Shown here in pieces: positions 9,264-56,723 of a DNA stretch of 64,000 nucleotides. The stretch lies in the NCBI GenBank assembly GCA_000004985.1, contig GG738845.1, one strand, 5' to 3'. The position numbers were made by a program, and so were the translations under genes. Each line of letters begins with the position of its first letter. The first letter of the stretch is position 1. The stretch is from Naegleria gruberi. Its lineage: Eukaryota. The notes under the pieces are model-generated. The model had not been told where the DNA came from. It saw only the letters and a list, made by a program, of their open reading frames with translations, and did not search any database.

Positions 9264-12111
9264 CTAGAGAAACTCTAACATTAATTCGTTTTCTTCTGGC
9301 AATGGAGCAATTCTGAAAGCCTTGACATGCATTGCTAAAGTTCTATCTGTTGTAAGGTAGTGTTCATTGATGTGAGCTAGGAGGTATAAAAGAAATTCTT
9401 CTAGAATAAATTCAGAACCATGTTGTTTGAATTCATCATGCAATTCATAAATAATTTCAATGAATTTTTCATGCTCCTTGAAATGTTCTTCCAACAAGTC
9501 GTTTTTAAGTAAGCATTCAATAAAGAGTCGTCTTTCTGCTTCAAAGGATTCTTGTAATGATTCAATGGCATCTTCCAAAATATAAATCCCAATATTCCAC
9601 TCCACTAGAGACACATTCTTGTTGGCTTTTGCCATTCTGAAAATTGATTTGGTCAAGTTATTAATTGTATCGAATAATTTCATGTAGCAAGTATCAATAA
9701 CACCTAAATTATAACCCAACTGATTAGTCCAAGCAATCAATTGTTCTCTAGGCAACACTGTAAGATTATTAATGGTTACCAAGTGTTGAGATTGTGTTGA
9801 GGTTGGTATTGTTCCACTCACAACATTACTTCCTCCATTCAGGTTATTACTTGCTGAGGAACCAGCTGTTGAACCATTTAGAACAGCACTGAAATCATCC
9901 ATAGATGAAGTCTGTCTGTGTGGAGTGGCAGATCCACTACTTTGACCGCTTTCTCCTCTATTTTTTGTAATCTTCTTGAATAGTCCAGCAAATCGATTAG
10001 AATCCTTGGTATCATCATTAATGATAATTCCCATTTCTTTTGCAACTTTCTTGCATGATTTGTGTTGCTTGTTTTGAATTTTTACATTGGCACCTCCAAT
10101 AGTAATCAAGAGATTGGAAGTTGATGGATTATTCAATTTCAATGAGAGATGAAGCCCCGTATCACCATCATTATTTTGTTCATCAATAGACATTTCATTA
10201 CTTGATATCAAAACCCAAAAGAATGCCTCATTGGGAATATCATGATTGTACAGGTAGCATTTTGAAGCAGAGAATGGAATGTGTACTGGTGTATTAGTAA
10301 TATTACTGCTATTATCTCCATAATACGATGGAGAATCACTGCTACTATTGCTGTTATTATCTGCACTGCCTGTTGAATCATTTTCATTACTGTTTTGGAA
10401 GGAGAAATTATTATTGACAGTTGGCGTTGAAATAATAGTTGCAGAATCAATTGGTTCACTTCCACTATTTGGTGTAATAATATTTGAGTTGACAACATTG
10501 GAGATGGAATTACCAACCAAGTTGACTGTATAGTGAAGAACAGTATTTCCCTTAACTCTATCTTTGAAATTTAAAAAGGCCTGAATTCTATCTAATGGTA
10601 TGAATTGAATTAAAATGCAAAACGAAATGAAATAACCCTGTTGAGCACATATATGAAGGAGAGTTTTGCCTAGTTGATCATCAGATCGAATCCATCTCTG
10701 AAACTCATCCAATGCATAATTTTTACAGAACCAATCACACAATTTGAACAACAATGAAGGGAATGGAAGTGAGCAGAATAGACAATTTTCCTCGAATCGG
10801 TTCTTTGTTGCAATGTTAATATTTGGCTGTTTAAGAATGAATTGAACTCGAGGCCAATCGTTCGATTCACATGCATCGTGTAAAATGGTATTTCCTCTCT
10901 TTCCCTTAAAATTGACATCAGCTCCAAACAGAATAAGAGCATCTGCTGTTTCAAAAAACCCTCCCGACAAGGCTATACCTAATGGAAAATTTTCATAAGC
11001 ATCACGAATATTAACTTGAGCTCCTTTTGATGCCAGAACATGACAGGCATCAGTGTGTCCATGAGCACTTGCTAAGAAAATTGGAGTACTATCCGATTTG
11101 TCAACAATATTAGGATTAGCTCCATACTTGTCAATTAAATATTCAATAATATGAGTATGACCAAATCTTGAAGCAATATGTAATAGTGATCTATCATTCT
11201 TTGTCTTGTCTCTAAATATTTGATTAATATCAAATAGTATGCCACCTCCTCCACCACTAGAAAATGAAGTATTTGACGGAACAAATAGGGATGTTGAATT
11301 GCTACTGGTAGAATTACCACCAGATGGTGACGAAGAGCCACCACTAGCCACTCTAGGTGAAATTGGATAAGTATTGTTTTTAATTGAATCCAGTAATCGA
11401 ACCAATTCATCCAAATACCCATACTCAATGCAGGCCAATACACGTTGTTCCATTGATAATTTAACATGTTCAAAATCTATTAATTGATCTCCTAATTATT
11501 ATTCAAAGTATTAACATGTGAATGTTGAATTAGATAGACATACCTGTATATAAATTATTTCCCAAATGTGGAGCTTCTAAAGTTAACAAAATTGGAGAGG
11601 ATCCAATTTCCAAATCATTCAGTTTAATCATGATGGATGGATTTGAATCTTTCAACCTATCATTTTGATGATTATCTGTAATATTTTCATCACAATCCAA
11701 TTTCTCTCCAAATTCATGGTAATGCATCTGCTGATTTTGAGAAGAGGAATCACTGAGTTGTGTGTCTTCTTGTTTCTTGTTGATTTTTTCATATTTTTCA
11801 CTTAGAATTTCACTACTCAGTGAGTGAACGCTCATATTTTCTATGAGCATTAAATCATCAGATTTTAATCTGTGATATGGAATGGTATTGTCCCCTAGCA
11901 TACACCTCCTAATACAATACAAGTCAAAGTGATATTTACATAGTGTTTTAATGGAGTGTTTTCCGGAAATTAGATTGTAATGAATGCTACTGGTACTTGA
12001 GAGAGATGTTAAATTATTATTGTTTGATGATGAGATGTTCATTGATGAAGAGGAAGGAAAAAGATTGGCAGATGATGAGTGTGGAGATGGTTGAGACATT
12101 TTTTGTAACAT
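9264..12111 (-). CDS. Ankyrin-repeat protein. Two exons, 11544..12111 and 9264..11491, with a 52-nt GTATGT..TTAG intron.
   Basis: Ankyrin repeats are present: LLHIASRFGHTHIIEYLIDKYGANPN, TPIFLASAHGHTDACHVLASKGAQVN and GNTILHDACESNDW. ORF 11530..12111 ends ..LEAPHLGNNLYTG at a GTATGT donor. The acceptor joins in frame to ..DQLIDFEHVKLSMEQRVLA of ORF 9264..11453. The Ser/Asn-rich linker is low complexity. Confidence 0.7.
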
Positions 12112-21236: not shown

Positions 21237-23277
21237 TTATTTAGAAGCTTCTCTAATTTCCTTAATGAGCTTCTTCTTGTAAGCATCAATGTTATCCTTA
21301 TAAATCTTGACAGTACCCTTTTCAACTTGCCAGATTTGCTTATTTTCTATCTTATCAATCAATCTAAAATCGTGAGAAACTAAAACAACACCGCCAGAGT
21401 AGCAGTTGATAGCTTCAGCAAGAGAGTCAATTGTTTCAATATCAAGATGGCTGTAAAAAGATAAATTAGAAATTAAATTCAATCTAATATACTTACTTAG
21501 TAGGTTCGTCAAGGAACAAAATAAATGGCTTCTTAAGAGCTAACCAAGCAAAAATCAATCTTGATTTCAAACCATCTGAGAGACATTTAATTGGAGCAGT
21601 TTGACGTGTACCACTGATACCATAAGTACCAATAGCAGCTCTCATCATTTCTGTACCATTAGAGTTATTTTCAATAAGGTCTGGGAATTCCTTAAACATC
21701 CATTCTAAAGGAGTCATGTCTTCATCTAATTGCTAAATAAATAGTTAAAATTATTGACAGGTTATTAAAAACATACTTCAGTCAAATGTTGGTGGTAGTG
21801 ACCAATCTTCAAGTGGGAGTGAAGATTAATATCTCCAGAGACAGGTTTAAGTTGCTTAACCATGAGTTTCATCAATGTAGATTTACCAGCACCATTCTAT
21901 AAAGAGTGTTAAAAATTTCAATTAAGGATATACTATTGACTACTTACTGGACCGACGAGAGCAATACGGGAATCCATATCAACACCCAAAGATAGCTTAC
22001 TGAATAACAATGGAGGTTCTGGCATAATTTCAGTAGCTGGGTAGTGGAATGAGACTTCGTTAAATTGCAAAACTGGTGGTGGCAACTTTGGAACATCTGG
22101 GAATGTGAATTTGAAAATCTTGTCAGCAGTAACCTTTTCAGTTAAACCACTTCTCATCATCTTTTCAAGTTGTTTTTCCTTAGATTTGGCTTGTCTAGAC
22201 ATTTTGATGGATGTTTGACCGAACTTGGCAATATATTCCTTCATTCTACTGATATCATCTTGTTCAGATTGATATCTCTTCATTTGATTGACTTCTAATT
22301 CTTCTCTAGTCTTGCAGTAGGTATCATAATTACCTCCGTAATAAGTTAATCTTTGATCTTTGAGATGGATAATTGATGTACAGACATTGTTAAGGAAATC
22401 TTGAGAGTGGGAAATGATAATTAAAGAGTTTTCATATTCTTTGAGGTACATTTCAAGCCAGACACAAGTTTCAAGATCAAGATGGCTGTATATTATTAAT
22501 GGATGGAAATAAGATTGTAATTATATGAAAATAAGAATTAGGTCAAAAATCATAAAACACTTACTTTGTAGGTTCATCGAGAAGCAAAACATCAGGTTCA
22601 ATGAAAAGAGCTTCGGCCAACTTGATTCTCATTCTCCAACCACCGGAGAAATCCTTAGTTGCCTTCAATTGCATTTGAGGAGTAAAACCCAAACCGTGCA
22701 AAAGTTTAGCAGCCTTAGGTTTCGTCCATTCTGGATCTAATTCTTCCAACTTATCCATGATGAGTTCTTGTCTTTCAGTTGTTGTCTTTGGATCGTTCAA
22801 TTCCTTTTCTAATCTTTTACGTTCCTTATCGACACTTGATAAAACATAGTCAAGTGCACTCATATCGGTTGGTTTAGCTTCACCTTGTAAGTGATAAATT
22901 GAAATTTGCTTTGGAATAGGAATCATTCTTCTACCCAAAACTTTGAGAAGAGTGGATTTACCTGAACCATTCAAACCGATTAAACCGTATTTAACACCTC
23001 TATTCAAACAAAATTCAGTGTCATCAATAAGATCAACTGAGGCAGAGAGTTGTGGTGAAGAAATGGATATAGAAAAGTGTTCAAATTTCAAGTCCATAGA
23101 AAGTGGGTGAGAAACCAAATTACCAGTGGCTGAAATGTGAAGAGTTGTTGTGGAAGCATCTTGTTGAAGTTCGTGATTTTCGTCATCACTATCATAATCA
23201 ACCTTTGTTGGAGTGGTACTAGCAGGAGAAGGAGTATTGGATTTACCACCTTTCTTGTTATTCTTCTTTGGAGGCAT
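21237..23277 (-). CDS. ABCF-family ATP-binding cassette protein (GCN20/ABC50-like), with two NBDs and no TMD. Five exons: 22565..23277, 21948..22485, 21777..21896, 21497..21732, 21237..21450.
   Basis: Walker A motifs [12 protein letters not shown] and GPNGAGKST are present. ABC signatures and D-loops span the introns: [19 protein letters not shown] and [17 protein letters not shown]. Introns are 79, 51, 44 and 46 nt, with GTAAGT or GTATGT donors and CAG or TAG acceptors. All junctions were frame-checked against ORF-track coordinates. Confidence 0.85.
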
Positions 23278-31645: not shown

Positions 31646-33240
31646 ATGGGTCTTCCCAGAAGTACAGTCACATCAGTGTTGAGTTTCATTCTCGGAACGA
31701 ATGATGCCTCCATGAATATGATTGCATCAAAGAAGCAACCACAATTGGAAGGTGGTGGTGATGGTGCAGGAGGAGCCACTATGGAAACTGTTATTTATAT
31801 TGATGGAAATTCATTAATTTATCACAAATTGCAAGATGTTATTCCTGTAGATGCTACTGCTTCAACATTGTTTGCTGAGAAGAGTGTTTTGAAAATTGTG
31901 GAGCAAGTTAAGGATTCTGTAATTGGTCAATTGAATCATATTTATTTGGAGAATAGACCATTTTCAAAGATTGTACTAGTTTTTGATGGTCCTTGCCCAT
32001 TGTAAGTATAGTTTCCTTGCTATCATAATTATGAATTTGGAAAAGTGCTAAAAATCAAGAACAAAGAAAACGTAGATTTGCCAATGTTTCCAGTTTGATG
32101 GCAAGTCCAGGAACTTTTTTCATGTTTAAAATTTGCCAGGAGATTTATAAATGGGCAGATGATGTGTTCTATTCACATGCCACAAAGGGAGTAGATATTA
32201 AGGTGGAATTTTCTGATTGTTTCGTACCTGGAGAGGGTGAAATTAAAATTTTAGAGGCTATAAGAAATAATCCAAATTGTAGACATGTTGTCTATACTAA
32301 GGATAGTGATTTTGTATTGCTCTTATTGACATCATGTGAGGAGAATATCATTCTTGTAAATGATTATCAGAAAATAGAAAAGATTATTCTGGTAAAGAGA
32401 GTTAGAGATCAGTTTGGATTATTTGATAATCAACAATATAAGGAAAAATTGAATAGCATACTGTTGGATATGGTATTTCTATCAATAAGTTTTGGAAATG
32501 ATTACTTGAAACCAATGTCACACGAACAAAAATTGTTAAACCTATTATTGAGATACAAGAAAAAGAAGCAAAAATATCCAGAAAAGTCTCTCGTTCATAT
32601 TGAGAAGAATACAATTGGACTAGATTTGGAGTTTTTCACCAAGATTTTAATTAAATCGAAGGATGTACAACCCTCCATGAAACGATCAGAGGAAGAAACT
32701 CTTTTAACGCTTAATTATTTGAAGAGTTTGTTGTGGTGTATTGGCACTTATGAGAGTGGAGTCTGTAGAAATTACTCACAATTCTCACATTGCACACCAC
32801 CAGTACTTTTGTCTCAAATGATTCAAGATATGAGAATTTTAGCGAAAAGGGATAAGATATTAATGTTGCCAACAATTGGTGATTCAAGCTTGTTACCAGT
32901 TACATTTTTAATGTCCATAATGCCTTTCACTGTATTTAGACAGGCGATACCAAAGAATATCATTTCATTAATTGAGTCGGATAGGTCTCTAATTGTAGAG
33001 TATCAGAATCACTCTTTAAAGCCATCAAGTTTCTTCCAATTGAAAACAATTGAACAAAAGCTACAGTCCTCCATCTCCAAGGAGAAAACAATCCAAGAGG
33101 ATGACCAGATTTGGTGTGAAAAATTACTCTATCCACCCAATACAGTGTTCAAAGTTTCGAAAAATAGAATTGAGGATATCTATCTCAGAACCAAAAAAAT
33201 AGCTAAAATCCTTAAAAAGAGCAAGTCAAATAGTAAATAA
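31646..33240 (+). CDS. XRN-family 5'-3' exoribonuclease-like protein containing the catalytic core only (~510 aa). Two exons with a short intron near 32002..32046.
   Basis: Exon 1 starts MGLPRS and contains VIYIDGNSLIYH and LVFDGPCP. A GTAAGT donor follows CCATT. Exon 2 continues ..AKNQEQRKRRFANVSS, matching the XRN AKMNQQRSRRF motif. Later motifs are VPGEGEIKILE (GEGEHKI), TKDSDFVLLLL (DxD), DMVFLSISFGNDYL and YLKSLLWCIGTYESGV, a CR2-like segment. The exact acceptor position is uncertain. Confidence 0.65.
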
Positions 33241-33393
33241 TTTGAATGTGCAAAATTGTATTTATTTTGGTTGCGAACAGACTTGTCAGTGACTTTAGTT
33301 ATTTTACAAAGTTGTGCTTAGAAATTGGCTCGTGCCAAACCTAGATTAGTATTATTAATTGGTATCTCAAATAGTTCTTGAAATTGGAAATAT

Positions 33394-33993
33394 CTAGTCA
33401 TCCCACGACGACTGTTGTTTTGGAACATTCTCAAAATCTACTTCCTTATCATACTCATATCCCTCATCACCAGGTCTGATAACGTTGAATTTCTTGTCCA
33501 TCTCTGCCTTTACTCTCCTTAGGGTGACATCATCTAGCTTGTTCAAGTCTTTCTGTTGTGTTTCACTGTCTTCCTCATCCTCGTCAAAGTTATCGTCATC
33601 ACCTTGGTGATGGTACTTAGAGGTTGTATTATTGGTATTTGGGGAAGGTTTACTTTGGTTTTGTATAGATTGAGGCCTATTATCTGGAGGTAAAAATGAT
33701 TTTGTAGTAAAATCGACCAGTTTTCTGATCATTTTTGTAGTTTGATTTTCTGGAATGTGGGAGGCTAAATTCTTATGGTGCTTCATCAGGACATTAGACT
33801 TGATGTGTTCAACCAATTCATCTTCCTCTAATTCCGGATAGTTTTGTACAATGTAGTCTTCCAAGTAAATTTTTCGATGTCTGAGTTCCTTCTTTCCTTT
33901 CTTTGAAATTGTTGTATATTCAATTACGAGAGCACATAATTTCAATCTAATTCCAATTCTTAAAACATTTACATCATCGTTATTTGAGGGCAT
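33394..33993 (-). CDS. CEP19-like centrosomal/ciliary protein
   Basis: The 199-aa ORF contains DLNKLDDVTLRRVKAEMDKKFNVIRPGDEGYEYDKEVDFENVPKQQSSWDD. This closely resembles human CEP19 [42 protein letters not shown]..SCGWD, and the N-terminal IRL..LVIEY segment matches as well. Confidence 0.65.
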   Translation of the reverse strand: MPSNNDDVNVLRIGIRLKLCALVIEYTTISKKGKKELRHRKIYLEDYIVQNYPELEEDELVEHIKSNVLMKHHKNLASHIPENQTTKMIRKLVDFTTKSFLPPDNRPQSIQNQSKPSPNTNNTTSKYHHQGDDDNFDEDEEDSETQQKDLNKLDDVTLRRVKAEMDKKFNVIRPGDEGYEYDKEVDFENVPKQQSSWDD

Positions 33994-34171
33994 TTTTTTT
34001 GTAGATTTTTGGAGGCAAAAATTTCGTTCAAATAAGCTTCAGTGCTACATTAAGGGAGCCTAAATATGGTAAAAACAATTCTTGTTTGTGGAAAAATTCT
34101 TCTTCTTGAAACCTATAACATGCAATATGTGTTGTTGATACATCCTACAAAGTAGTGAAACATGCTTGTTA

Positions 34172-34867
34172 TTATTCTCTCTCTGTATTATTCAATATGT
34201 ATTTTAAGGAGAGAGGATAGAAATTCTCAAAGAAATCATATTTTCTATAATCTAGATAATTGTGGGGCCACTTATCAATTCCAATCTTTTCCTTGATCTG
34301 ATAAAATTTTCTTTTAAGAGTTGATAAACTACATCCAAGAACATTGCATGCTTGCTGTTGAGTAAGATGCAAGAGACGTATCATCTCATCATCTGTAATA
34401 CTATCCACACTTCTTTTTCCTCTTTTTCCAATCATGGATGCATCGACTCGAATTATGGAAACATGTTGATCCTTTGAATAATTAAAATATGAATTCTTAT
34501 GAACATCTACTGGGCTTAACATTTGATTTTCCATGAATGTATAAACAACTTGTTCAAAGGGTTTTTCGCTAGTATTCGAACTATTGGAATCTCTATTCTT
34601 CATTTCGTACTTTCTTTTGATTTTTTTAGTTTTTTTCACTCCACCAATCCTGAATTTCGACATGTATTCGAATTGTGAGTTGGATGTTAAGCATGTGTCA
34701 TCAACATCCTCATGCACATGCATGCCATCCGTTGTCACATTAGCAGATGTGTTGTACGCAGATTCTGGTGATGGTAATCTCATACTATTGTTGTGTTGGT
34801 GTTGTTGTTGATTTCCCCTATTAATGTTTAAATAGATGTTATGGTTTGATGTTGTTTGATGCATCAA
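34172..34867 (-). CDS. RWP-RK domain transcription factor
   Basis: The C-terminal ITDDEMIRLLHLTQQQACNVLGCSLSTLKRKFYQIKEKIGIDKWPH matches the RWP-RK domain, with a KWP variant of the RWP triplet. The N-terminus is Q/N-rich. Confidence 0.55.
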   Translation of the reverse strand: MMHQTTSNHNIYLNINRGNQQQHQHNNSMRLPSPESAYNTSANVTTDGMHVHEDVDDTCLTSNSQFEYMSKFRIGGVKKTKKIKRKYEMKNRDSNSSNTSEKPFEQVVYTFMENQMLSPVDVHKNSYFNYSKDQHVSIIRVDASMIGKRGKRSVDSITDDEMIRLLHLTQQQACNVLGCSLSTLKRKFYQIKEKIGIDKWPHNYLDYRKYDFFENFYPLSLKYILNNTERE

Positions 34868-35855
34868 GGCTGCGGAGGAGGATGTTATATTGGCTAGTGT
34901 TGAGATTTGTAGATGGATTCAAAAGCTCTGAGTACTCCATTGATGTGAAGTTGTGTTTTTTGTTGGTTTTTAATGATGGCAATGACTAGAAGAAAGAACA
35001 TAGATGAGCGAGTAAAGCTCGTCAGTGTAGATCGTTCGTTATTGGTTGGGAAGTTTTTTTGTTGTGTGTTGTTGGTGGTTCAAGGGTTGATTTCTTTGGA
35101 AAGAATAGACCTTTACTGGCCCAATTTATTATCGTTGCAACACTGGTTGAAGACAGAGAGTGTCCTTGACAATTCCATCGATTATCTTTTGGGTAATGGT
35201 GTTTTTGTGGTTTGAGATAATTTTGTTTAAGAAACTAACCAATCACATTATTCATTGTAAAATACACAACAAAAATTGAACCCAAATCATGTTTCAGATT
35301 TCTTATTATCAAGCAATGTGATATGACAGAACTATTTATTAATAATTTACATAAAATGTGATTCAAAATTTAAAACTCAAGAAAGATATTCTTCATAGTC
35401 TTCCTTCGAACTGTTAGAGAGGGATTAATTTAGAGTGATGAGGAAAAGCTATAAACGAAATAAACAATCAAGCTAATGATGGAGAGGTAAATAAAATCTA
35501 TTTAACAAGTCCGATTATTAATTATTAAAATATAATTGTTATTAAATTATCAATATCAACAACAACACATACTCATCAAAATAATTTCCCACGGTTCCAA
35601 CATGTAGTTAACACTCATAATTTGATAGTGTTTGAATTTTCTCTGAAGAAAGCCGATCATCTTGTTGCAATTTTTTATTTGATTTTAATGTCCTTGCTGC
35701 GAAAGGCAAACAGAAAAGTTATCGTTGAAAGTAATATCCTCTATCACCCTTCAACTAATTGGATGATAGAATTGTCGGTTCATGTAAGGAACGAGTAATA
35801 AGAAGAGCAAGATATAAGTAATTGGAGGAAACAACATTAAATAGATGATAAATAT

Positions 35856-35866
35856 TTCCCGCCAAG
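35856..35866 (+). promoter_or_regulatory. E2F-like motif TTTCCCGCCAAG, 29-39 bp upstream of the GAS8/DRC4 ATG
   Basis: Seen in the sequence as aatatttcccgccaagtg. It is a perfect match to TTTCCCGC. Confidence 0.5.
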
Positions 35867-35894
35867 TGTTATTTACGAAAAAACATCAAAAAAA

Positions 35895-37295
35895 ATGAGC
35901 TCAAACCGAAGACCCAACAATAATAACACAGCACCTCCCCAACCCACAACAGCCGCTGCTAATCCAGCTGATGCTAAGAATTATGAAGAGTTGAAGGCGG
36001 AATTGGAGGAGACAAAGAGAAATAGAAATTACTACCAATTGGAAAGGGATAGAATAAATTCCTTCTGGGATATTACAAAGAAGGAAGTGGAAAATCTCAA
36101 GGGCGAGGTAAGGAACATGCAGAGGGAGATGGAAGAAAATGAAGAAAGACATCAGGTAGAATTAAAAGTGTACAAACAAAAAGTTAGACATCTTCTCTAT
36201 GAACAAAAGATCACCATTGATAGATTAAAAATTGAAAGTGAGAATGCTTTAAAGATCCAAGCTGATGAATTTAGGCAAAAATTAGCTCAATTGAAATCGG
36301 ATAAGAGAAAATTAAAAAGAGAACTCCACTCTATGGAAATAGCTTACCAAGAAGAAATCAAGGGGCTTAAAACGAATCAAGACAAAAACTTGACAAAACA
36401 AACTGAGACATTTGCAAGAAAACTTAAAGAGACCCAACTGAAATATGAAATGAAAATGAAAAAATTAAGAGAAGATTTAGAATTGAGAGGGAGAAAAGAA
36501 ACTGAAGAAATTGAAGAAAGAAAAAATACTCACATCAAACAATTAATGGAAAAACACAAACTTGCCTTTCAACAAATGAAGGATTACTATATAACTATTA
36601 CTAGAAATAACTTGGAATTAATCAAAACTCTGAAAGATGAAGCTGCACTGATGAAACAGGAAGAAGCAGACAATGAAAAACTCATGTTGGAAATTGCTCA
36701 AGACAATAAGAGATTGAGTGAACCTCTTGTTAAGGCTCTGGCAGAAGTTAAAAAGCTCAGAAATGAATTGGCCAACTACCAAAAGGACAAGCTATCTCTC
36801 AAAAATGCCAAGAGCAGGCTGGTCATGATGGAAGATCAATTGAAGAAATTGAAATGGGAACATGAGATTTTAGAACAAAGCCATAAGCAAGTGCACAGAG
36901 AACGTGACGATCTTTACGATAAGTTTGAAAAAACTATTCATGAAGTTCAACAAAAAACACTGTTCAAGAATCAAGTTCTTGAAACAAAGGTTTATGCACT
37001 TCAAGAAACTTTGGAAAAGAAGGATGCCCAAATTCATGAAATACTCAAAGCTTGTAACATAGATGAACACACAGCCGAAGAAATCTCTGAAGGTCTTGAT
37101 AATGTCATTGAAGAAAAGAACAACACGATACGAGAACTCAAATTTGAAATTGAAAAGATGAAGAAGAGTTATAATGATTTGATACGAGTAATTAATGCCA
37201 AGATGCAACAGTATGGAATTGAGGATGAGTTAGGTATTGAACCAATCGCTAACGTTGTTGATGAAGGTGTCCCAGGTAGAGTATGGGTAAAATAA
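35895..37295 (+). CDS. GAS8/DRC4, nexin-dynein regulatory complex subunit 4 (axonemal)
   Basis: Single 466-aa coiled-coil ORF. It contains RNYYQLERDRINSFWDITKK...EERHQVELKVYKQKVRHLLYE, close to the human GAS8 segment [41 protein letters not shown]. Collinear similarity continues through the C-terminus: KWEHEILEQ.., ELYDKF..IHEVQQKT.FKN.VLE.K. Confidence 0.85.
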   Translation: MSSNRRPNNNNTAPPQPTTAAANPADAKNYEELKAELEETKRNRNYYQLERDRINSFWDITKKEVENLKGEVRNMQREMEENEERHQVELKVYKQKVRHLLYEQKITIDRLKIESENALKIQADEFRQKLAQLKSDKRKLKRELHSMEIAYQEEIKGLKTNQDKNLTKQTETFARKLKETQLKYEMKMKKLREDLELRGRKETEEIEERKNTHIKQLMEKHKLAFQQMKDYYITITRNNLELIKTLKDEAALMKQEEADNEKLMLEIAQDNKRLSEPLVKALAEVKKLRNELANYQKDKLSLKNAKSRLVMMEDQLKKLKWEHEILEQSHKQVHRERDDLYDKFEKTIHEVQQKTLFKNQVLETKVYALQETLEKKDAQIHEILKACNIDEHTAEEISEGLDNVIEEKNNTIRELKFEIEKMKKSYNDLIRVINAKMQQYGIEDELGIEPIANVVDEGVPGRVWVK

Positions 37296-37401
37296 GTAGC
37301 ACTAAATTCAACAAACACTAGGTTTTTTATCTTGTAAATAAAGTTAACAATTGTTATTGATTGACTATTTGCAGAATAATTGTTTTTCTATTATTAAAAA
37401 A

Positions 37402-38209
37402 ATGACAATACATCATACTTCTGATGGTATCAGAGAGGGTTATCAATTTAAAGATCCCTATATTAAAAATCTATTTAATATGATTGCAAAACAATCACCT
37501 TGTTTTCCAATTGAACCTGATCATGTTCAAGTTATCGAAACACCATCACAATTTTATGATGATTTATTGGAGGGAATTAAACATGCAAAAGACAGAGTTG
37601 TATTGAGTAGTTTATATCTAGGAACAGGAGAACAAGAGAAGAAAATTATTCAAGTCTAAGGACTCTTCTATAGCTCTCACTAGCGCCTATTTTAACTTTA
37701 CAGATGAATATATGGAAAGAGTATTGACTACACCATGTACAGACATTTCAATACTCACTGCCTCACCGGCTGCAAATGGATTTTTTACAGCAACTGGCAT
37801 TTCAAAGAATATTCCAATGGCATATGATACTATGGAGCAATCATTTTTTTCTGCAGTTGAGAGAAATCAAAAATTGGGATCCATCAAATTATTCGAATAC
37901 AATAGAGAGAAGTGGACTTTCCATGCCAAAGGATTGTGGCTCTATTCTCCAAACAAAACTATTAATGCACCATTTCTAACCATGATTGGAAGTAGTAATT
38001 TTGGACAACGATCAACAGAAAGAGATGTCGAATCTCAAATAATTTTAATGACTGAGGATGAAAAGTTAATGCAAACATTAGAGAAGGAGAGACAAGGTCT
38101 CGCCAATTACTCCAAACTTGTAACAAGAGCTACTTTTGCCTCTCCTGAGAGAAAGATTGGCAAAGTTTCACAGTTTTTAGTTTCCAAGTTTTTCCATAAA
38201 TTCCTTTAA
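37402..38209 (+). CDS. PGS1-like (CDP-diacylglycerol--glycerol-3-phosphate phosphatidyltransferase) gene that lacks the first HKD domain. Model has two exons, 37402..37606 and 37674..38209.
   Basis: ORF 37351..37659 gives the PGS1 N-terminal segment ..IKHAKDRVVLSSLYLGTGEQE. ORF 37712..38209, open from 37622 in its frame, gives the PGS1 C-terminal half: LTSAYFNFTDEYMERVL..WTFHAKGLWLY..MIGSSNFGQRS (second HKD). The two frames differ by +1. A GTAGTT..TATAG intron of about 67 nt, or a frameshift, is needed to join them. The ~280-aa region carrying HKD1 is absent. Confidence 0.5.
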
Positions 38210-38212
38210 TTT

Positions 38213-41200
38213 TTATTCCAAATCTTTGAAATACTTTTCCATCTCGGCACTAGCTTTGAGATTCTTTGGATTTAATGGATAAGGATACAAATCGCCCTTA
38301 AGAGTCTTTCTCAAGTATTTATAACCTTGCTTTCCATCAGCTTTAGAAATGATTACTTTTGATAAAGTACCTTCAGGTAAGCACATTGAAGTAATTACGT
38401 GACCTCCTCTCTTGAGTGGAGTATCAGTAATACGAGGCCATCTAAATGATTGAAGAGAAAATTCTCTTGCATAACCTCTCAATTCCTTTCTAAGTGCAAT
38501 TTCCTTTTCCACAACAGAATCTGGAAGTTGCTCTCTTATTTGTTTCTTTCTCATTTCTTCTTCTTCTTCTTTTTCTACTTGCTCTCCATATTTAAATCCA
38601 TCAAGTCCATGTCTCTTGAAAGCAATGAATGAGTAATTTTCATTTTCATATTGTTTTTTAGCTTGCTTGGTCAACTTTTGGAATTCTTCGCGCTCCACTC
38701 TTTGTGCAAAGTGACACCATTTTGGAGTGCCGGCCATTGGACAAACTGAATCATGAGGGCATGGGGCCAATATTGTTGGCTTATCATTAATGTTAATGTA
38801 TTTTTGTGTGAGTACTGTTGATCTAGCCTCTCTGATAAAATCAAATCCAACAGGTGTACCTGGTTCAATAATTATCAAAACACCAGATGTTAGTTTCCAC
38901 AGTGCCTTTACAATTCTTTCTCTTTCTTGAGAGTTAGACAATTCATTCATTACAAATGAGGCAACAACAAGGTCATATTGCTTACTAGAATGTTCATTCA
39001 AAAAACGTCTCCATGTAATGTGTGGTTTGTTGTTCATATATTCGAATAATCTGGAAGCAACGTCCATCATTGCAGTAGACGGTTCAACAGCCATCACTTC
39101 TTTCACACTTCCTCCAAAAGCTTCATGAGCTGCCCAAATGGTAGTACCTGGTCCAGTACCAAAATCAAGCATTGTCTTTGGTTCAAAGTCAGGCATTCTC
39201 ATTACAGCCTCTGAAAATACTCTATATGATGTACCATAGATGGCAGGAAGTCTGTGGGCAATATATGCAGCAGATTCCAACTCCTTATAAATAATTTGAG
39301 GATTATAAGTTCTATTAAATTCCTCTTCACTATCCTTTTTCATCTTTTCAATATCAATAGGTCTCTTCTTTTTTTTTGAGGTTTCCTTGTAACTTCTCAA
39401 ATGTTTGAGAACTTCCAATTGTTCCCTGAATAATTCATCTTCAGGACTTTCATCCTTATTCAATTTCTTTTCTTCATCAGATCTGCTGAAAACTTTTGGA
39501 TTCTTATCCAAGCCATTAGTTCTCAATCTAAAGGCAGCACTTAGAATTTGAGCAGTTCTTTGAATCAAATTCTTTGGATATTCAGATACAATCTCAGATA
39601 CACCCTCAACAAGTTCTGGAGGAAGACTAATAGAACCAATACTCATATTGGCTATTTCCTTTCTAAGCTTATCCTCGTTTTCTTTTGTAGATTTCTTCAA
39701 GTATGGGTGTATATCCTCTGAAAACATTGCATATTCTGATTTGGTTTCATATTCAGATAATAGTAAATTCTTTTCTTCCAACGATTGGAAAATTTGGTTT
39801 GGGTCATCATCCCCCAAGTATTCATCCAAAAGATTCGAAATTGGTGTCTCATTCTCTTCATTTTCCAATTCGTCTTGCAGTTTATCATAAGCTGTAGTTT
39901 TTTCTATTTTTTTAGGTTGAGTTTTTTCCTTCTTCTTTTTAATGATTTCATCATCTTTAAGAATGGTATTAAGATCTGAAATATCATATCCATATTCTAA
40001 AAAGTAGTTTTTAGCATCTATCAATTTCTTCTCCAAATCTCTCTCATCAAAATTTGAGCTTTCCAAATCTACCTCATCCTTGGTACTTTCATCAACTAGT
40101 AAATCTCTTAGAGGTATTCTTCCCTTTGATCCTGCAACTATAAGTGGTTTCGTTTGGTCCTTATTGGTGGCATTTTTAACCTTTTCCACAACTTTCTTTG
40201 TATTGGTTCCAATTGGGTAGAGGATTAATATTTTTCTACCATGATTGTTTTGTATTACTGGTGAGTATCCCTTTAATTCCCATTGTTTGTTAAATTCAAC
40301 TGGATTTGACATGGCATTACTATATTGTTCATCTGTTAAATTCAAGATGGTTGTGGAGAATGTTGGACTAGATTCATTTTGATCCACTTCTGGTTTTTCT
40401 TTACTTGAGTCCATTGTTTCTTTGTGAGCTAATTCTTCATAACTAGATGGTTTCTTATTGACGGTGGAGAGTCTTTGGGATAATTTTTGGAGATCGGTCT
40501 TTTTGTGAGGTTTTGAGGAGAGCTTATCACTCTCAACAATTTCAATATTCTTTGGCAATTGTTTCTTTGGTCTTTCGACATCCTCTTCCTCTTCCTCAGT
40601 AATACTATTTACAAATTGTTTGAATGAAATATCTTCTTTTCCTCTCTTCTCCTCCTCTTCCTCTGGTACAGAATTCACATAGTCTTCGTATGCTTTTTTG
40701 AGTTCTGCCTTCTTTTTCTTTTTTTCTTCAATTTCCTCTGGTGTACTGTCCATGTCAGGGAGAAGAATATTTTCCAAATTGTATCTGACATCATGTTTAA
40801 TACCCCATTCAACAACTTTCGAGATGTCATCCTCAGTGTTTACCTTATTTTGTAAGAGGTTTGCAAATTTCTTATCTTGTAATTTAGTTGTTGTGTATTC
40901 TGCAACAGGCATTGAGCTTGTATCTATTTGATCTCGTTTAGGTTTGTTAACAAGAATTTTGAATGATGATTCATCTTTCTTTCTAGATTCCTCCTTTTTC
41001 TTTTCTAGTTCCTTTGCTTCCTTCAACCTGGATTCTTTCATCTCTTTCCTCAATTTTTGAACAAGTGCTACAACATCCTCTTCCTCCATATTATTTTTTC
41101 CATCAGTTACCTTTTGATTTGTGATAGTAGTGGTATTTGGTTGTTGTGGGTTGGATAATTTTGTGGTACTTTTTGGAATCTCTGAAGATACCTTCTTTTT

Positions 41201-41452
41201 CGTTTTGTTGCTGGCTTGTTCTATTTTCTTATTGTTGGATTTAGTTGTGTTCATTGGTTTGTTGTTACTATTCTTTTTAATTCCCGATGATTTTTCCATG
41301 GATGAAAGTAGAGAATCAATAGAAGATTTCTTCTCTAGAAAAAGTGTTGTAGAGAATAACCTATTGTTATTTCCAATCAGAGGCAATTTTCTAGAAAGAG
41401 GCAATCCCGACAAGGAAGCTACTACTGATGACTTTCCAACGAATCTCTTCAT
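38213..41452 (-). CDS. Rsm22/METTL17-family mitochondrial small-subunit methyltransferase-like protein with a long Lys/Glu-rich N-terminal extension
   Basis: The C-terminal half contains LDFGTGPGTTIWAAHEAFG (SAM-binding), then VVASFVMNELSNSQERERIV, then the Cys cluster ILAPCPHDSVCP..KWCHFAQRV typical of Rsm22/METTL17. The N-terminal ~550 aa are low-complexity K/E-rich. Confidence 0.65.
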   Translation of the reverse strand: MKRFVGKSSVVASLSGLPLSRKLPLIGNNNRLFSTTLFLEKKSSIDSLLSSMEKSSGIKKNSNNKPMNTTKSNNKKIEQASNKTKKKVSSEIPKSTTKLSNPQQPNTTTITNQKVTDGKNNMEEEDVVALVQKLRKEMKESRLKEAKELEKKKEESRKKDESSFKILVNKPKRDQIDTSSMPVAEYTTTKLQDKKFANLLQNKVNTEDDISKVVEWGIKHDVRYNLENILLPDMDSTPEEIEEKKKKKAELKKAYEDYVNSVPEEEEEKRGKEDISFKQFVNSITEEEEEDVERPKKQLPKNIEIVESDKLSSKPHKKTDLQKLSQRLSTVNKKPSSYEELAHKETMDSSKEKPEVDQNESSPTFSTTILNLTDEQYSNAMSNPVEFNKQWELKGYSPVIQNNHGRKILILYPIGTNTKKVVEKVKNATNKDQTKPLIVAGSKGRIPLRDLLVDESTKDEVDLESSNFDERDLEKKLIDAKNYFLEYGYDISDLNTILKDDEIIKKKKEKTQPKKIEKTTAYDKLQDELENEENETPISNLLDEYLGDDDPNQIFQSLEEKNLLLSEYETKSEYAMFSEDIHPYLKKSTKENEDKLRKEIANMSIGSISLPPELVEGVSEIVSEYPKNLIQRTAQILSAAFRLRTNGLDKNPKVFSRSDEEKKLNKDESPEDELFREQLEVLKHLRSYKETSKKKKRPIDIEKMKKDSEEEFNRTYNPQIIYKELESAAYIAHRLPAIYGTSYRVFSEAVMRMPDFEPKTMLDFGTGPGTTIWAAHEAFGGSVKEVMAVEPSTAMMDVASRLFEYMNNKPHITWRRFLNEHSSKQYDLVVASFVMNELSNSQERERIVKALWKLTSGVLIIIEPGTPVGFDFIREARSTVLTQKYININDKPTILAPCPHDSVCPMAGTPKWCHFAQRVEREEFQKLTKQAKKQYENENYSFIAFKRHGLDGFKYGEQVEKEEEEEMRKKQIREQLPDSVVEKEIALRKELRGYAREFSLQSFRWPRITDTPLKRGGHVITSMCLPEGTLSKVIISKADGKQGYKYLRKTLKGDLYPYPLNPKNLKASAEMEKYFKDLE

Positions 41453-48257: not shown

Positions 48258-49285
48258 ATGGCCACAAACTACTTGATGGAAAATTATACAATTATTGAGA
48301 AGATTGGTGAGGGAACATTCGGACAAGTATTAAAAGCAAAAAGGTAAGTAGTAAAAGGAAGATAATGATCTTTAATATAATTTAGGAAGGCTGATGGACG
48401 AGTTGTGGCCTTAAAGAAAATTAGAATTAGGAAACAAGAATTTGAAGACTTTCCGAAAAATGTAATTAGAGAAGCAAAAAGTCTTCAACATGTGTGCCAC
48501 AATAATGTCATCAAGTTGTATGATGTCTTTGTGAATGGATCATCTCTTGTTCTCTCATTAGAATTTATGAAAACAGATTTGGCAAGAATTATTAAAGCCC
48601 AAAGGACACCCTTCCTTGAGTCTCATATCAAATGTATAATGCTAATGATGTTAAAGGGTCTCCACAATTGTCACACCAATAGTATCATGCACAGAGTATG
48701 TAGGAAAGTGTAATTATTTAGAAATTAATTATGTGGAATTATTAGGACATCAAACCTGCCAACTTACTTTTCAATCACAACGGAGAGTTAAAACTGGGAG
48801 ATTTTGGATTGGCTACGTTGTATCTTGGAAAGAATGAATCTTACTCACATCAAGTTGCAACAAGATGGTACAGAGCTCCAGAACTTTTGTATGGAAGTAG
48901 ATCTTATGATTGTAAAGTAGATATTTGGGCAGCTGGTTGTGTCATGGCAGAATTGTACAATCTTTGTCCCTTATTCACTGGTGAAAATGATATTGATCAA
49001 TTATATAAGGTACTTTCACTTTTGGGAATTCCTTCAGAAAATAATTGGCCAGGAGTTTCCAAGTTGCCAGATTTTGGCAAGATAACCTTCTCGAAAATTA
49101 AAGTGAGAACGATCAGTGAACTAGTTCCAGGAGCTCCTGATTTGGCTCTTGATCTTATGTCACATCTATTAAGATTTGACAATGATGAAAGATATAGTGC
49201 TGAGGAGGCCTTAAGACATCCATACTTTTTTAGTGAACCTTTGCCTTGTGATTTTTCAGAGCTTAAATTGCCAAACAAGATGTAG
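48258..49285 (+). CDS. CDK20/CCRK-like cyclin-dependent kinase. Three exons: 48258..48343, 48386..48695, 48746..49285.
   Basis: The spliced protein is MATNYLMENYTIIEKIGEGTFGQVLKAKR|KADGRVVALKKIRI...NSIMHR|DIKPANLL..LGDFGLA..YSHQVATRWYRAPELLYG. The introns are 42 and 50 nt, with GTAAGT or GTATGT donors and a TTTAG or ATTAG acceptor. The sequence is closest to CDK20/CCRK in the PNxxxRE-type regulatory-helix region NVIREAKSL. Confidence 0.8.
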
Positions 49286-49357: not shown

Positions 49358-50620
49358 TTATTCTACAAGGGCTTCAAACTTATCAATTGGATCAGCATTG
49401 ATTGGTTCTGTATTGGAATTCCAATCAAACTTGAGAGAGACATACACTCCCTTATTATTACAAACGAGAATGGATTCATCATTAGTCTCAAAAGTACAAA
49501 CTGACACACCATCAATATTTGGATATTTAAATGTGCTAGTAGGTGTAGTTTCAAGAGGTTCATAAATTGTGGTTGTTACATAGCTCCAAATTGTTGATAG
49601 ACTAGAATTGGCAGAATTTTCAGTGTTGCTTGCTAGTCTGGCTTTCCACTCTTTAAAGTCTACTACAAACACATGGAGTGTCTCTCTAGAAACACACGAT
49701 ATCAAGTCTCCCTTATGATTAAAAGTGAGAGAATAAATTTCCTTTGCCAAATTACCTCTTCTGAATTCATGAATTTTCACACCTGTATCAATGTTGAACA
49801 CTCTTACCAACGTTCCCTTCTCAGAAACAGTTGCCAACATGGATCCATCCTGATTCAAGGCAACACATCTTATTGAAGATTCATGAGCTCTAATTGTAAT
49901 TTCAGAAATTATTTCATAATTTTCGTGGCCAATGGTAACAACCTTTACCTCTCCAACTTGTTCATCCAAAATAGCCAGCAAGTACTCTTTCTTTTGCTTA
50001 TTGTAAATAAAGGTGGATATACCATATGAATTGAGGGTTGTCTTCCATGAGTGTACTTGTCGTTTGGTTTGTAAATCAAAAATATACACCATATCCTCAG
50101 CAACAACAGCAAATCTGATAATTCAAGTTTGATTATTACAATAAATCAATTAAATATAATTAAAATCAAATAATAAACTTACAAATTCTTCTTTGAATGA
50201 ATACTTATAATATTCCTTGGGCAAATCAACTCATTTGTGACCTTTCTTTCTTTATAATTGTAAAAAACAACCTTATTCATTGCAAATGCTGGTCGAGAAC
50301 CTCCTCCGACAAGGGCAACTGTGCCCTTATCCTCATCCATGAAACAAACAAATGAAATTCCTCCATCAATAAATTCTAATGTTACGATGATGATTAGTCT
50401 AATCAACAATTTAAAACTCACTATGATCAAATACCCTCTCACAAAATCCGTAAGCACACGAAATAATTCTAAACCCTTGATCCTTTCCGTAGGCTAACAT
50501 TGTAGAATCTTGGTTAAATCCGATGAATAGAGTATTATTATTATTGGTGTTGCTATTCGATTGCTCTCCAACAGCATTGTCAGAACCAACATTACTTCTC
50601 GGAACGACCACAAAAGACAT
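49358..50620 (-). CDS. WIPI/Atg18-type PROPPIN WD40 protein. Three exons: 50422..50620, 50183..50375, 49358..50114.
   Basis: The FRRG phosphoinositide-binding motif is present in IHEFRRGNLAKEIYSLTF. Exon 1 is MSFVVVP..LFIGFNQDSTMLAYG..FCERVFDH with a GTGAGT donor. Exon 2 is ..KFIDGGISFVCFMDEDKGTVALVGGGSRP.. and exon 3 is ..LFAVVAEDMVYIFDLQT... The introns are 46 and 68 nt. All junctions were frame-checked against the ORF track. Confidence 0.75.
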
Positions 50621-53204: not shown

Positions 53205-54999
53205 ATGAATGAACAAGTATTATCGAGTACACTTTCACATTTTGAAAGTCTATTCGAAGTTCTTTTAGAAAAACAACAAGAAACTTCTGAACAATTACAA
53301 GAAATTATTTCCGAAAGAAATTCAATATGGCACGAAAAGATTATTCCCAAAATTGAACAATTGTATTATAAAAAGAGAGAATTTCATTTAAATAATGAAT
53401 TTCTCTCGTTAAAATCCAATAGGATGGATTCTCTTGTAAAGGAATTAATCGGAAGAGAGGATGAAAAACAAAACAGATTAATTGAGACTAGAAACATTGT
53501 TAAGGATAAATTTCAAGACTTGTTTAAATTGATAGGGATGGAAATGGATTATTTACATAATTTATCTAACTCTTCAAAAATTGGAGAGGATGCCAAGATC
53601 TTTCTGAAAATTCCAAAGAATTTGGATACTGAAGGGAGAATTGATTATTTATTGAATAATGTAGAGGAAAATATTAGAAACGAGTATAAGGATAAAAATC
53701 AATTGAAATATTACGAGATTGGGAAAAAGTTTGTTGAATATTTCAATCAGAGGGAAAATGAAAAAATTAGGAAAAACAACAAGATCGTCCTCAAGGAACA
53801 AAAGGACAAGCCAATGAATGAAAAATTGAACCAGCTGAGAGGGTTCATTGAAGACACATTCCATTTCAGTACAAGAAAAAAGAGTGAGTAATTTAATTGA
53901 GAATATTGATGGAATATTAATAGTTATCCAAAGTGCTAAATATGTATTATATTGCAAGATTAAATTCAATTATCATTACAATTTTCAACAAATACTGAAT
54001 CAGGAATCAACCATAACAACATTTGATGCTTGGTGTGATAAATATTCAATACTGGAACGGTTCAATAATGAAATAAGGGAAGTATATTACAAACGACAAT
54101 TATTTTCCAATAGTGAGGAGTATGATTTGAATATTCTCAAACCTAGTGTTGAAATAACTAATCATTCAACATTCAACCTCTCCAGAAAAATCTCAGAACC
54201 AAGAAATAACAATCCTATGAAAACTATTCTAGGTCTATATTTATTTTCCCTAATACTTTCAGATCCTATTCTACTAGGTCAAGACGAAACAAAAGTACAA
54301 AGCCTAAGAATATTATTTATTGAACTTGTAAATCGAACGCAATTCAAACATTTTTCTCGGTTGTTGCCTGATATGAAATTGTCAATATTAACAACTAATC
54401 TCGTAAAACTGAAAAGTGAAAAACAGAGCTATTTAAGGTACTTAATTAGCAAATATCAAACATCTCCTCAAGATGAAAAACTACTAAGATTAATGTTTAC
54501 TCTACATAATTGTGGAGTCAACAAGCTTTCTCAAACAAAAAAGAGGGAATTGGAGAAAATTGCAATGTCCATGATATTTCGAGAAGCTGCCAATTGTATT
54601 TCCATTAATGATTTCATGGTCATGTCCAAACTGTATAATATTGAAAATATCATTTCACCTTTATTAGTGGGTAAAAATTTGGAGTTTATCCCTACCGTTT
54701 CAAACCAGAAAAATCATGTCGAAGAATTGTTCCAATTATGGGACATCTTCAGTGAGTTGTTAGAAACATTTAAACAGAACCAGGTTGAAATGATTAAAAG
54801 AGCGAGAATGGAAATAACAGAGAGTATCAAATATATTTGTCAAAAATTGACATCACTTGTGATTTCATCTCAAGAGGGTTCCCTTTTACTTGTAGAAGAA
54901 ATGTTTTCACTTTTGGAATCTTCATACCATTCCCTTAAACATTTTCCTGATCTGCAAAATATGATTGAGCACACCCTTCAGTCCATAATAAAACTGTAA
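53205..54999 (+). CDS. Hypothetical protein of about 590 aa. The two overlapping ORFs are probably joined by a ~40-nt GTGAGT..AATAG intron near 53882..53921.
   Basis: ORFs 53184..53891 and 53848..54999 overlap in different frames. A donor A|GTGAGTAATTT and an acceptor TTAATAG|TTATCCAAAG join them as ..HFSTRKK|IIQSAKYVLYCK... The first ATG is at 53205; the track start is a TTG. Confidence 0.4.
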
Positions 55000-55196: not shown

Positions 55197-56723
55197 TTAT
55201 TGAATTTGTTGTTGGAAAGTCTCAACCTCATTAGAGACAAGTATCTTGATATCCTCAGTTTTAATATCCTCACTGAATTGATAATCAAAATTAGCTTGAC
55301 AAAAGTAAGTATTTTCAGAAGTGTTTGGATCGGTATTATATTCATCCTGATCGAACATTTCTTTCAGATAGGGATGTCTAAGAGCATCTCTAACTGTTAT
55401 TCTCTTTTCAGGATCCCATGTGAGCATTCTTTCAAGCAAATCAATTGCTAATTGATTCGTAACATGTGAAAAGATTTGACCGAAATTCTTCTTTTCATAT
55501 GTTTGCTTAAAGTGAGTCTTCATAAATTTAATTCCTTCACTGCAACCTCTAATTTCCTCATCCTTTGGAGTACCAACCAAACGTAAAATCAATTCCAATT
55601 GATCCTTAAAATCTTTGCCAGGAAACAAAATAGGTCTTCCATTTTTGTGAAGTGGTTTCACTAAGAGTTCCTATTAAAATGACTGTTATTAGAAAGAATA
55701 AAATTATACACATACAGCAAAAATACATCCAATTGACCACATATCCATAGCAGCATGCAATTTGTTCCAATACAAAATCTGATGCAACTATTTAGAAAAT
55801 ACATGTAGATCAGTACTTACAACTTCTGGACTTCTGTACCATCTTGTCACAACATATTTGGAATCTTCTGGATAATCTTGACCAATGGCTCTACTCAAAC
55901 CAAAATCACATATTTGTAAATCCAAATCTCTATTCAGCAGAATATTGCTTGGCTTTAAATCTCTGTGAATTATATTACTGCTATGCATGATATTAACTGC
56001 TTTTAAAATTTCATGAAGAAAGTATTGGATAGATTGTTCACTAAATGTCTGATTACTTGACAAGAGTTTTTCCAAATCAAAATCCATCAAATTGGTGACA
56101 ATATAAATACTTCCAGGTTGATAAGGATCAAAGAATAAATCCTTAAGTAATACAACATTATGGGCACTAAATTGTCTGAAATGTTTCAAAATTTTGATTT
56201 CTCTTAAAATTCTCTTTTGATAATTTCTATCTCTTTCATAGAGACTGGATACTTTTTTAATGGCAACTCTTTCATTATTCTTATTATCCAATGCACTCAC
56301 AACACAACCAAATCCACCAGCTCCTTTTACACCATCCATTGTATATCTCTTTGGTAATGAAAATGTGTTTCCATTTACAGAATATTGTACATATTCCGGA
56401 GAGGAAGTTTGTCTACTTGCTTGTTGACCAGTAAACATTTGATTATTATTCGGATATGATGAATTTCCTCCATTAAATAATTGTTGTTGTTGATTATAGT
56501 ATTGTTGCTGTTGTTGTTGATAGATATCATGTTGATGAGCCTGAATGAATGAAGCTTGATCGGAATATTGTTGTTGAGTATTGTAATTTGAACCATTGTA
56601 TTGCGGTTGTTGTTGTTGTTGATTTCCCATCACCATGTTCATATTGTTCAGTTGTTGGTGTTGGTAGGAATTATTGTTGTTGTGGTGTTGTGGAAGCATT
56701 TTTATTATTTTAATATTCTTCAT
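55197..56723 (-). CDS. CMGC/MAPK-like protein kinase with a polyQ/N-rich N-terminus and an atypical S-K-Y activation-loop motif. Three exons: 55821..56723, 55716..55787, 55197..55670.
   Basis: Kinase motifs are present: GAGGFGCVVSALD..VAIKKV, HRDLKPSNILL and DFGLSRA..EDSKYVVTRWYRSPEV, followed by a GTAAGT donor. A middle 72-nt exon encodes LHQILYWNKLHAAMDMWSIGCIFA and the last exon encodes ELLVKPLHKNGRPILFPGKD... The introns are 33 and 45 nt. The start may be the second ATG, at MLPQHH. Confidence 0.7.

Follow-up and report, generated by a model that had tools for sequence, protein, structure and literature searches.

What form of phosphatidylglycerophosphate synthase (PGS1), if any, is encoded at positions 37402-38209 of the Naegleria gruberi window, that is, the 64,000-nt stretch of contig GG738845.1 (assembly GCA_000004985.1; 33% G+C) analysed here? 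The original prediction described a PGS1-like gene that keeps only the second of its two HKD motifs and whose two open reading frames would have to be joined by a 67-nt intron or by a frameshift, and it offered three outcomes: a functional single-HKD enzyme acting as a homodimer, a pseudogene, or an assembly collapse. Its description of the locus is correct, in an agreement that goes far beyond chance. Which of the outcomes applies depends on how the two reading frames came to lie side by side, and this was followed up by homology searches, alignment to intact orthologues, and comparison with an independent contig that covers the left side of the gene.

Gene identity and orthologues

Full-length PGS1 proteins aligned to the locus in two pieces (tblastn), with residues ~2-71 falling on window positions 37444-37653 (E 1e-9 to 1e-13) and the last ~155-185 residues falling on ~37655-38161 (residues ~273-427 on 37673-38161, E 1e-37 to 1e-60); the middle part of these proteins matched nowhere else in the 64-kb window. 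Homology to PGS1 thus covers both the N-terminal and the C-terminal regions, with E-values down to 1e-60. By sequence the window copy belongs to the PLD-type PGS1 family, since hundreds of the matches are so named, and in a phmmer search the C-terminal half reached E 1e-53 to its best representative. In Pfam the C-terminal part matched PLDc_2 once, with 24.6-26.6 bits and so just under the 27-bit cut-off, and the N-terminal part gave no match. On these alignments we identify the locus as the N. gruberi orthologue of the mitochondrial two-HKD phosphatidylglycerophosphate synthase PGS1.

All features of the gene are on the plus strand. An intact ATG at 37402 stands in an A-rich context (ttaaaaaaATG, 37392..37404) that is usual in the window, and from it an 85-aa ORF (37402..37659) runs in frame 1 to a TAA at 37657-37659. 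The PGS1 5' remnant within this ORF (M...VVLSSLYLGTGEQEKKIIQ, 37402..37654) comprises codons 1-84 and the first base of codon 85. The second ORF lies in the +1 frame, as had been predicted, is open from 37622, and ends with a stop at 38207-38209. Its PGS1 3' remnant (37655..38209, frame 2) encodes 184 residues, SKDSSIALTSAYFNF...KFFHKFL plus the stop, and corresponds to the second PLD domain minus the first strand and helix of that domain. The HKD2 region, FHAKGLW...IGSSNFGQRS (37919..38014), can be read directly from the sequence, and its columns are nearly invariant in the family alignment. Of the two motifs of a two-PLD-domain enzyme, HKD1 (HxK...D...GSxN) and HKD2, only HKD2 is found at the locus and HKD1 is absent from the window, which confirms the earlier identification of a PGS1 gene with HKD2 only. 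A continuous coding sequence of ~410-560 aa is not found, as the two remnants are in different frames and the upstream frame meets the TAA at 37657. An A run (AAAAAAAATG) precedes many start codons in the window (e.g. 37392-37404, 41452, 25922, 61259), and this strong local initiation context could aid gene calling in the N. gruberi genome.

Full-length orthologues were recovered by a profile search from N. lovaniensis (C9374_007670, P0191; 477 aa), a metagenomic Naegleria (P0192; 483 aa), Willaertia magna (P0193; 494 aa, full-length with two HKD motifs), and a JGI metagenome contig (P0045; 497 aa). The genes for P0191, P0192, and P0045 are single exons of 1434, 1452, and 1494 nt (477, 483, and 497 codons plus stop, respectively). 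A single-sequence search with the joined remnants and an exhaustive search of representatives that used the C-terminal ORF had reached 53-54% identity at best, which misleadingly suggested that there were no Naegleria orthologues, as the profile search later recovered the N. lovaniensis, Naegleria sp., and Willaertia proteins. P0191 and P0192 each contain two PLDc_2 stretches and a PLDc active-site match at HKD1 (Pfam). The window copy is orthologous to both and shares with them the HKD2 block and the C-terminal KFFHKFL, but P0191 and P0192 are uninterrupted and contain HKD1 (GVQHMKLYMFD...SGANLS), whereas the window copy lacks residues 82-293 and is frameshifted. In the same way, PGS1 family members are pseudo-dimers of 410-560 aa with two HKD-type motifs, whereas the window copy has the second motif only and a broken frame. 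Apart from this damage, it does not depart from the known PGS1 family. Among solved structures, those closest to the intact Naegleria orthologue are 3HSI (E 4e-16) and 8YR5 (E 3e-13), both of the bacterial two-HKD phosphatidylserine synthase PssA, which shares with that orthologue the two-domain PLD architecture and CDP-diacylglycerol chemistry but is distant and has another head-group substrate; this comparison applies to the intact orthologue and not to the window remnant.

Upstream of the gene, a 466-aa ORF with a GAS8 domain (35895-37292) is letter-for-letter N. gruberi XP_002683213.1 (exact look-up). GAS8 is followed by an L51_S25_CI-B8 gene, not by PGS1, in N. fowleri, N. lovaniensis, and another Naegleria, and PGS1 of N. 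lovaniensis has an unannotated 718-aa gene on one side and a protein kinase on the other; gene order around PGS1 is not conserved across Naegleria. Downstream, the stop of the PGS1 remnant (38207-38209) and that of a convergent 1079-aa ORF (38213-41452, minus strand) are 3 nt apart, so the 3' UTRs of the two must overlap. Exact look-up of the 1079-aa neighbour, the 85-aa ORF, and a 165-aa ORF found no deposited protein.

The junction

In the orthologue alignment, the 5' remnant is 63% identical to residues 1-81 of N. lovaniensis PGS1 and the 3' remnant is 80% identical to residues 294-477. Frame-1 homology reaches 37654 (...GTGEQEKKIIQ) and frame-2 homology begins at 37655 (SKDSSIALTSAYF vs VENSSLAFTSAYF in N. 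lovaniensis), where the frame-2 product opens with SKDSSIALTSAYFNF... and the N. lovaniensis protein reads VENSSLAFTSAYFNF... from residue 294. Because the one homology ends and the other starts there, the breakpoint is placed at 37654/37655, and the window reads ...ATTATTCAAG followed directly by TCTAAGGAC... across it. This placement is based on the orthologue alignment together with the divergence of the independent contig described below.

The missing segment corresponds to N. lovaniensis codons 82-293, which amounts to ~212 residues, in place of the ~280 first estimated, and includes the whole of HKD1 and the start of the second PLD domain. Neither the locus nor any other part of the 64-kb window contains equivalents of these residues, GVQHMK...SGANLS among them. 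On the left the gene breaks off one base into a codon, and on the right it resumes at a codon boundary. The loss is ~635 nt, a length not divisible by three, if the gene is intronless, and more if the intact gene has an intron; reading moves into the +1 frame at the junction, and the premature TAA of the upstream frame (37657..37659) lies one codon past it. No other lesions are seen in the remnants. Because they are otherwise undamaged, have retained the identities given above, and keep the start context, the lesion appears to be young.

Both first-beta-strand motifs, VVLSSLYLG and IALTSAYFN, are kept, so the breakpoints, contrary to what had been proposed, do not lie at equivalent positions of the two internal repeats. 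Recombination between the PLD halves was likewise rejected, because the two halves have no DNA similarity beyond chance words in the intact orthologues and no meaningful repeats were found at the locus or the junction, which makes both homologous recombination and a repeat-driven assembly collapse unlikely.

An independent contig

Exact look-up of the GAS8 protein led to L001, a 5731-nt ENA metagenome contig (ERZ929261, run ERR1078381) that differs from window positions 31922-37654 by only 3 SNPs (33797, 35278, and 35786) in 5.6 kb. It has the same sequence as the PGS1 5' remnant (37402..37654) and departs from the window exactly after 37654, reading ...ATTATTCAAG followed by AATTGGAAAAGG. The next 36 nt (AATTGGAAAAGG...) encode ELEKALERESTL, matching ELEKALEREKDL of N. 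lovaniensis. Read in this way, a near-identical genome contains a longer PGS1 allele extending beyond the left breakpoint, and this argues against the window structure as the only, functional form of PGS1 in the organism.

L001 reaches only 99 nt beyond the breakpoint and is clearly PGS1 in the first 36 nt only. Its tail (the last ~60 nt, 5668-5731) is unlike the intronless orthologues: the expected QVVILLDYLRGTR is not matched, a stop is present, and the sequence was not found in the 64-kb window or in any fetched locus. The tail carries two plausible splice donors (A/GTACGT and G/GTAATA). On the simplest reading it may be a species-specific intron, after which coding would resume with VVILLDYLRGTR; it may also be a second lesion in the longer allele.

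Six indels separate L001 from window 31922-37654, compared with only 3 SNPs. One is a 27-nt in-frame indel in a CEP19-like gene (minus strand; window 33592, L001 1671-1697), in which L001 has nine extra codons forming an acidic stretch; it is flanked by an ATCGTC direct repeat and has the look of a slippage event or a microhomology deletion on the reference side. Another lies upstream of an RWP-RK-like gene (34172-34867, minus strand), where 131 nt are present in the window (34945-35075) and 2 nt instead in L001 (3050-3053), with TGGTT/ATTGGTT repeats at the edges. Three further indels are of 1-2 nt. The window is shorter at the 27-nt indel and longer at the 131-nt indel, so the larger differences run both ways. 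Because there are several deletions in both directions, deletion polymorphism appears to be common between the two genomes, which resemble closely related haplotypes or clones set apart mainly by deletions, and the PGS1 deletion fits this pattern. A difference so dominated by indels is unusual and could reflect haplotypes, lab-clone divergence, or assembly errors.

Interpretation

We favour, with a probability of roughly 0.55, the reading that the locus is an ordinary PGS1 gene carrying a recent out-of-frame deletion, that this deletion is genuine and confined to the haplotype or clone that went into the reference assembly, and that a longer allele supplies the activity. An internal deletion of ~635 nt or longer would have removed PGS1 codons 82-293 and joined 37654 to 37655 out of frame. 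The mRNA of the window copy would then be translated into an 85-residue N-terminal peptide, halted at the TAA at 37657, and the ORF downstream would have neither the first strand and helix of its PLD domain nor an HKD1 partner, making the window copy a predicted null allele. PGP synthase activity would be supplied by a longer allele of the type that begins in L001. We further infer that the strain carries both alleles, that the longer of them is intact throughout, and that the window copy is not rescued by splicing. Of the three outcomes first offered, a pseudogene or an assembly problem is what these results point to, whereas a functional single-HKD homodimer is improbable and a repeat-driven collapse is unlikely.

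It is possible, if doubtful, that the strain contains an intact PGS1 only, and that the 37654/37655 join derives from a deleted or chimeric clone or from a mis-join, with the missing ~0.65-1 kb lost or placed on a small unplaced scaffold. Such an artefact would agree with the continuation of a near-identical independent contig beyond the breakpoint, with the otherwise perfect remnants, and with the fact that PGS1 is normally important to mitochondrial function. It would also agree with pathway surveys that score N. gruberi as having Pgs_pld and the PG-dependent Cls_pld, with no accession given (PMC5573378, PMC3378450), a scoring that is consistent with the existence of a working PGS1 copy. However, the window contains no Ns, the junction has no repeats, the gene halves have no DNA similarity able to mislead an assembler, and several other clean deletions between L001 and the window, in both directions, look like genuine polymorphism. 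Naegleria is described as mainly heterozygous diploid (PMC9928731), and this heterozygosity, the deletion pattern relative to L001, and the absence of repeats make a genuine deletion allele somewhat likelier than an artefact.

Loss of PGS1 in the N. gruberi lineage, with the reference and L001 copies both broken and PG and cardiolipin made by another route, is unlikely. It would explain why the L001 copy stops resembling PGS1 ~36-50 nt past the breakpoint, where the sequence beyond ELEKALERESTL deviates from the QVVILLDYLRGTR of its relatives and runs into a stop, although the two donors in that tail make an intron the simpler reading. It would also explain why the protein collections searched yielded neither an intact N. 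gruberi PGS1 protein nor a central fragment of one, but these searches were demonstrably incomplete: they missed known orthologues, and absences in single-sequence protein searches are for that reason given little weight. A profile of the central region likewise found no N. gruberi-like fragment and missed its own parent proteins. In the JGI metagenomes, the C-terminal peptide patterns and a 23-mer left of the breakpoint had no match, and literature searches on Naegleria PGS1 and on the ENA project of L001 returned nothing specific. The remnants show no decay, and the Pgs_pld and Cls_pld scoring cited above also speaks against a loss.

The candidate intron

The last reading is that the deleted copy itself works. 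Its frame would be restored by a cryptic intron, at either 37607-37673 or 37610-37673, or by a +1 ribosomal frameshift at GTC-TAA-G, and the product would be a protein of ~246-268 aa that fuses the first strand and helix of PLD domain 1 to domain 2 and acts as a putative single-HKD homodimer. For the 67-nt intron first proposed (GTAGTT...TATAG, 37607..37673, plus strand) the arithmetic is sound, as splicing gives an in-frame product of 246 aa (...AKDRVVL joined to TLTSAYFNF...); the acceptor at 37673 (...CTCTTCTATAG) is a pyrimidine-rich YAG, and 67 nt is within the range of the likely introns of the window. The in-frame fit carries no weight, however, because 87 in-frame GT..AG pairs are possible across the junction and do likewise, and splicing would leave the product two residues out of register (RVVL-TL-TSAYF vs IAL-TSAYF).

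Likely introns of the window were chosen as GT[AG][AT]GT sites joining long ORFs (n=8), with such introns at ~48696-48745, ~53884-53923, and 31870-32233 on the plus strand and at ~22486-22564, 55540-55909, ~50115-50182, and 11302-11693 on the minus strand; one interrupts a kinase between HRD and IKPAN, and another an ABC protein between LLLDEPTN and HLD. All eight are 33-80 nt long and have GTAAGT, GTATGT, or GTGAGT donors with G at +5 and T at +6, whereas the candidate donors at the PGS1 junction, GTAGTT (37607) and GTTTAT (37610), have no G at +5 and fall outside the GTRWGT pattern. The interior of the candidate intron encodes SSLYLGTGEQEKKIIQ, which is conserved across the PGS1 family, and the N. 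lovaniensis, Naegleria sp., and P0045 genes are intronless. Although its arithmetic, length, and acceptor stand, an intron at 37607-37673 is unsupported on the evidence of its donor, its coding interior, and its relatives, and we judge that it is not real. The longer allele in L001 also weighs against a functional short form, and exact look-up of ten candidate short gene models (spliced or truncated) in a collection of 15 billion proteins found none of them.

Single-HKD members of the PLD superfamily that form their active site by dimerising are known, such as the Nuc nuclease and Zucchini/MitoPLD, and with one PLD domain and one HKD motif the hypothetical spliced product would in principle resemble them. 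In contrast to the window copy, these enzymes have intact ORFs, and they are nucleases or cardiolipin hydrolases, not CDP-alcohol phosphatidyltransferases. A complete domain of the Nuc/Zucchini type is not present at the locus, as the frame-2 ORF is without the first strand and helix of its domain, and a complete hybrid PLD domain arises only via the non-consensus 37607-37673 splice. A functional single-HKD enzyme from this locus is, on the sequence, improbable, and it is very hard to credit that the deleted copy is expressed and rescued, by the weak GTAGTT donor or a +1 frameshift, as a hybrid single-HKD homodimeric PGP synthase.

Significance

No new type of enzyme is revealed by the locus unless the improbable splice rescue proves real, in which case the short form would be a natural experiment indicating that a two-HKD phosphatidyltransferase can be reduced to the single-domain form presumed to be its ancestor. 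The main value of the finding is for data quality and annotation: the N. gruberi NEG-M reference holds a broken copy of a core gene of mitochondrial lipid synthesis, and reconstructions of the phosphatidylglycerol and cardiolipin pathway for N. gruberi may therefore depend on a truncated PGS1 model. Should the deletion prove to be a real heterozygous allele, the locus would illustrate concretely how near-identical N. gruberi genomes, with very few SNPs between them, can be polymorphic for deletions.
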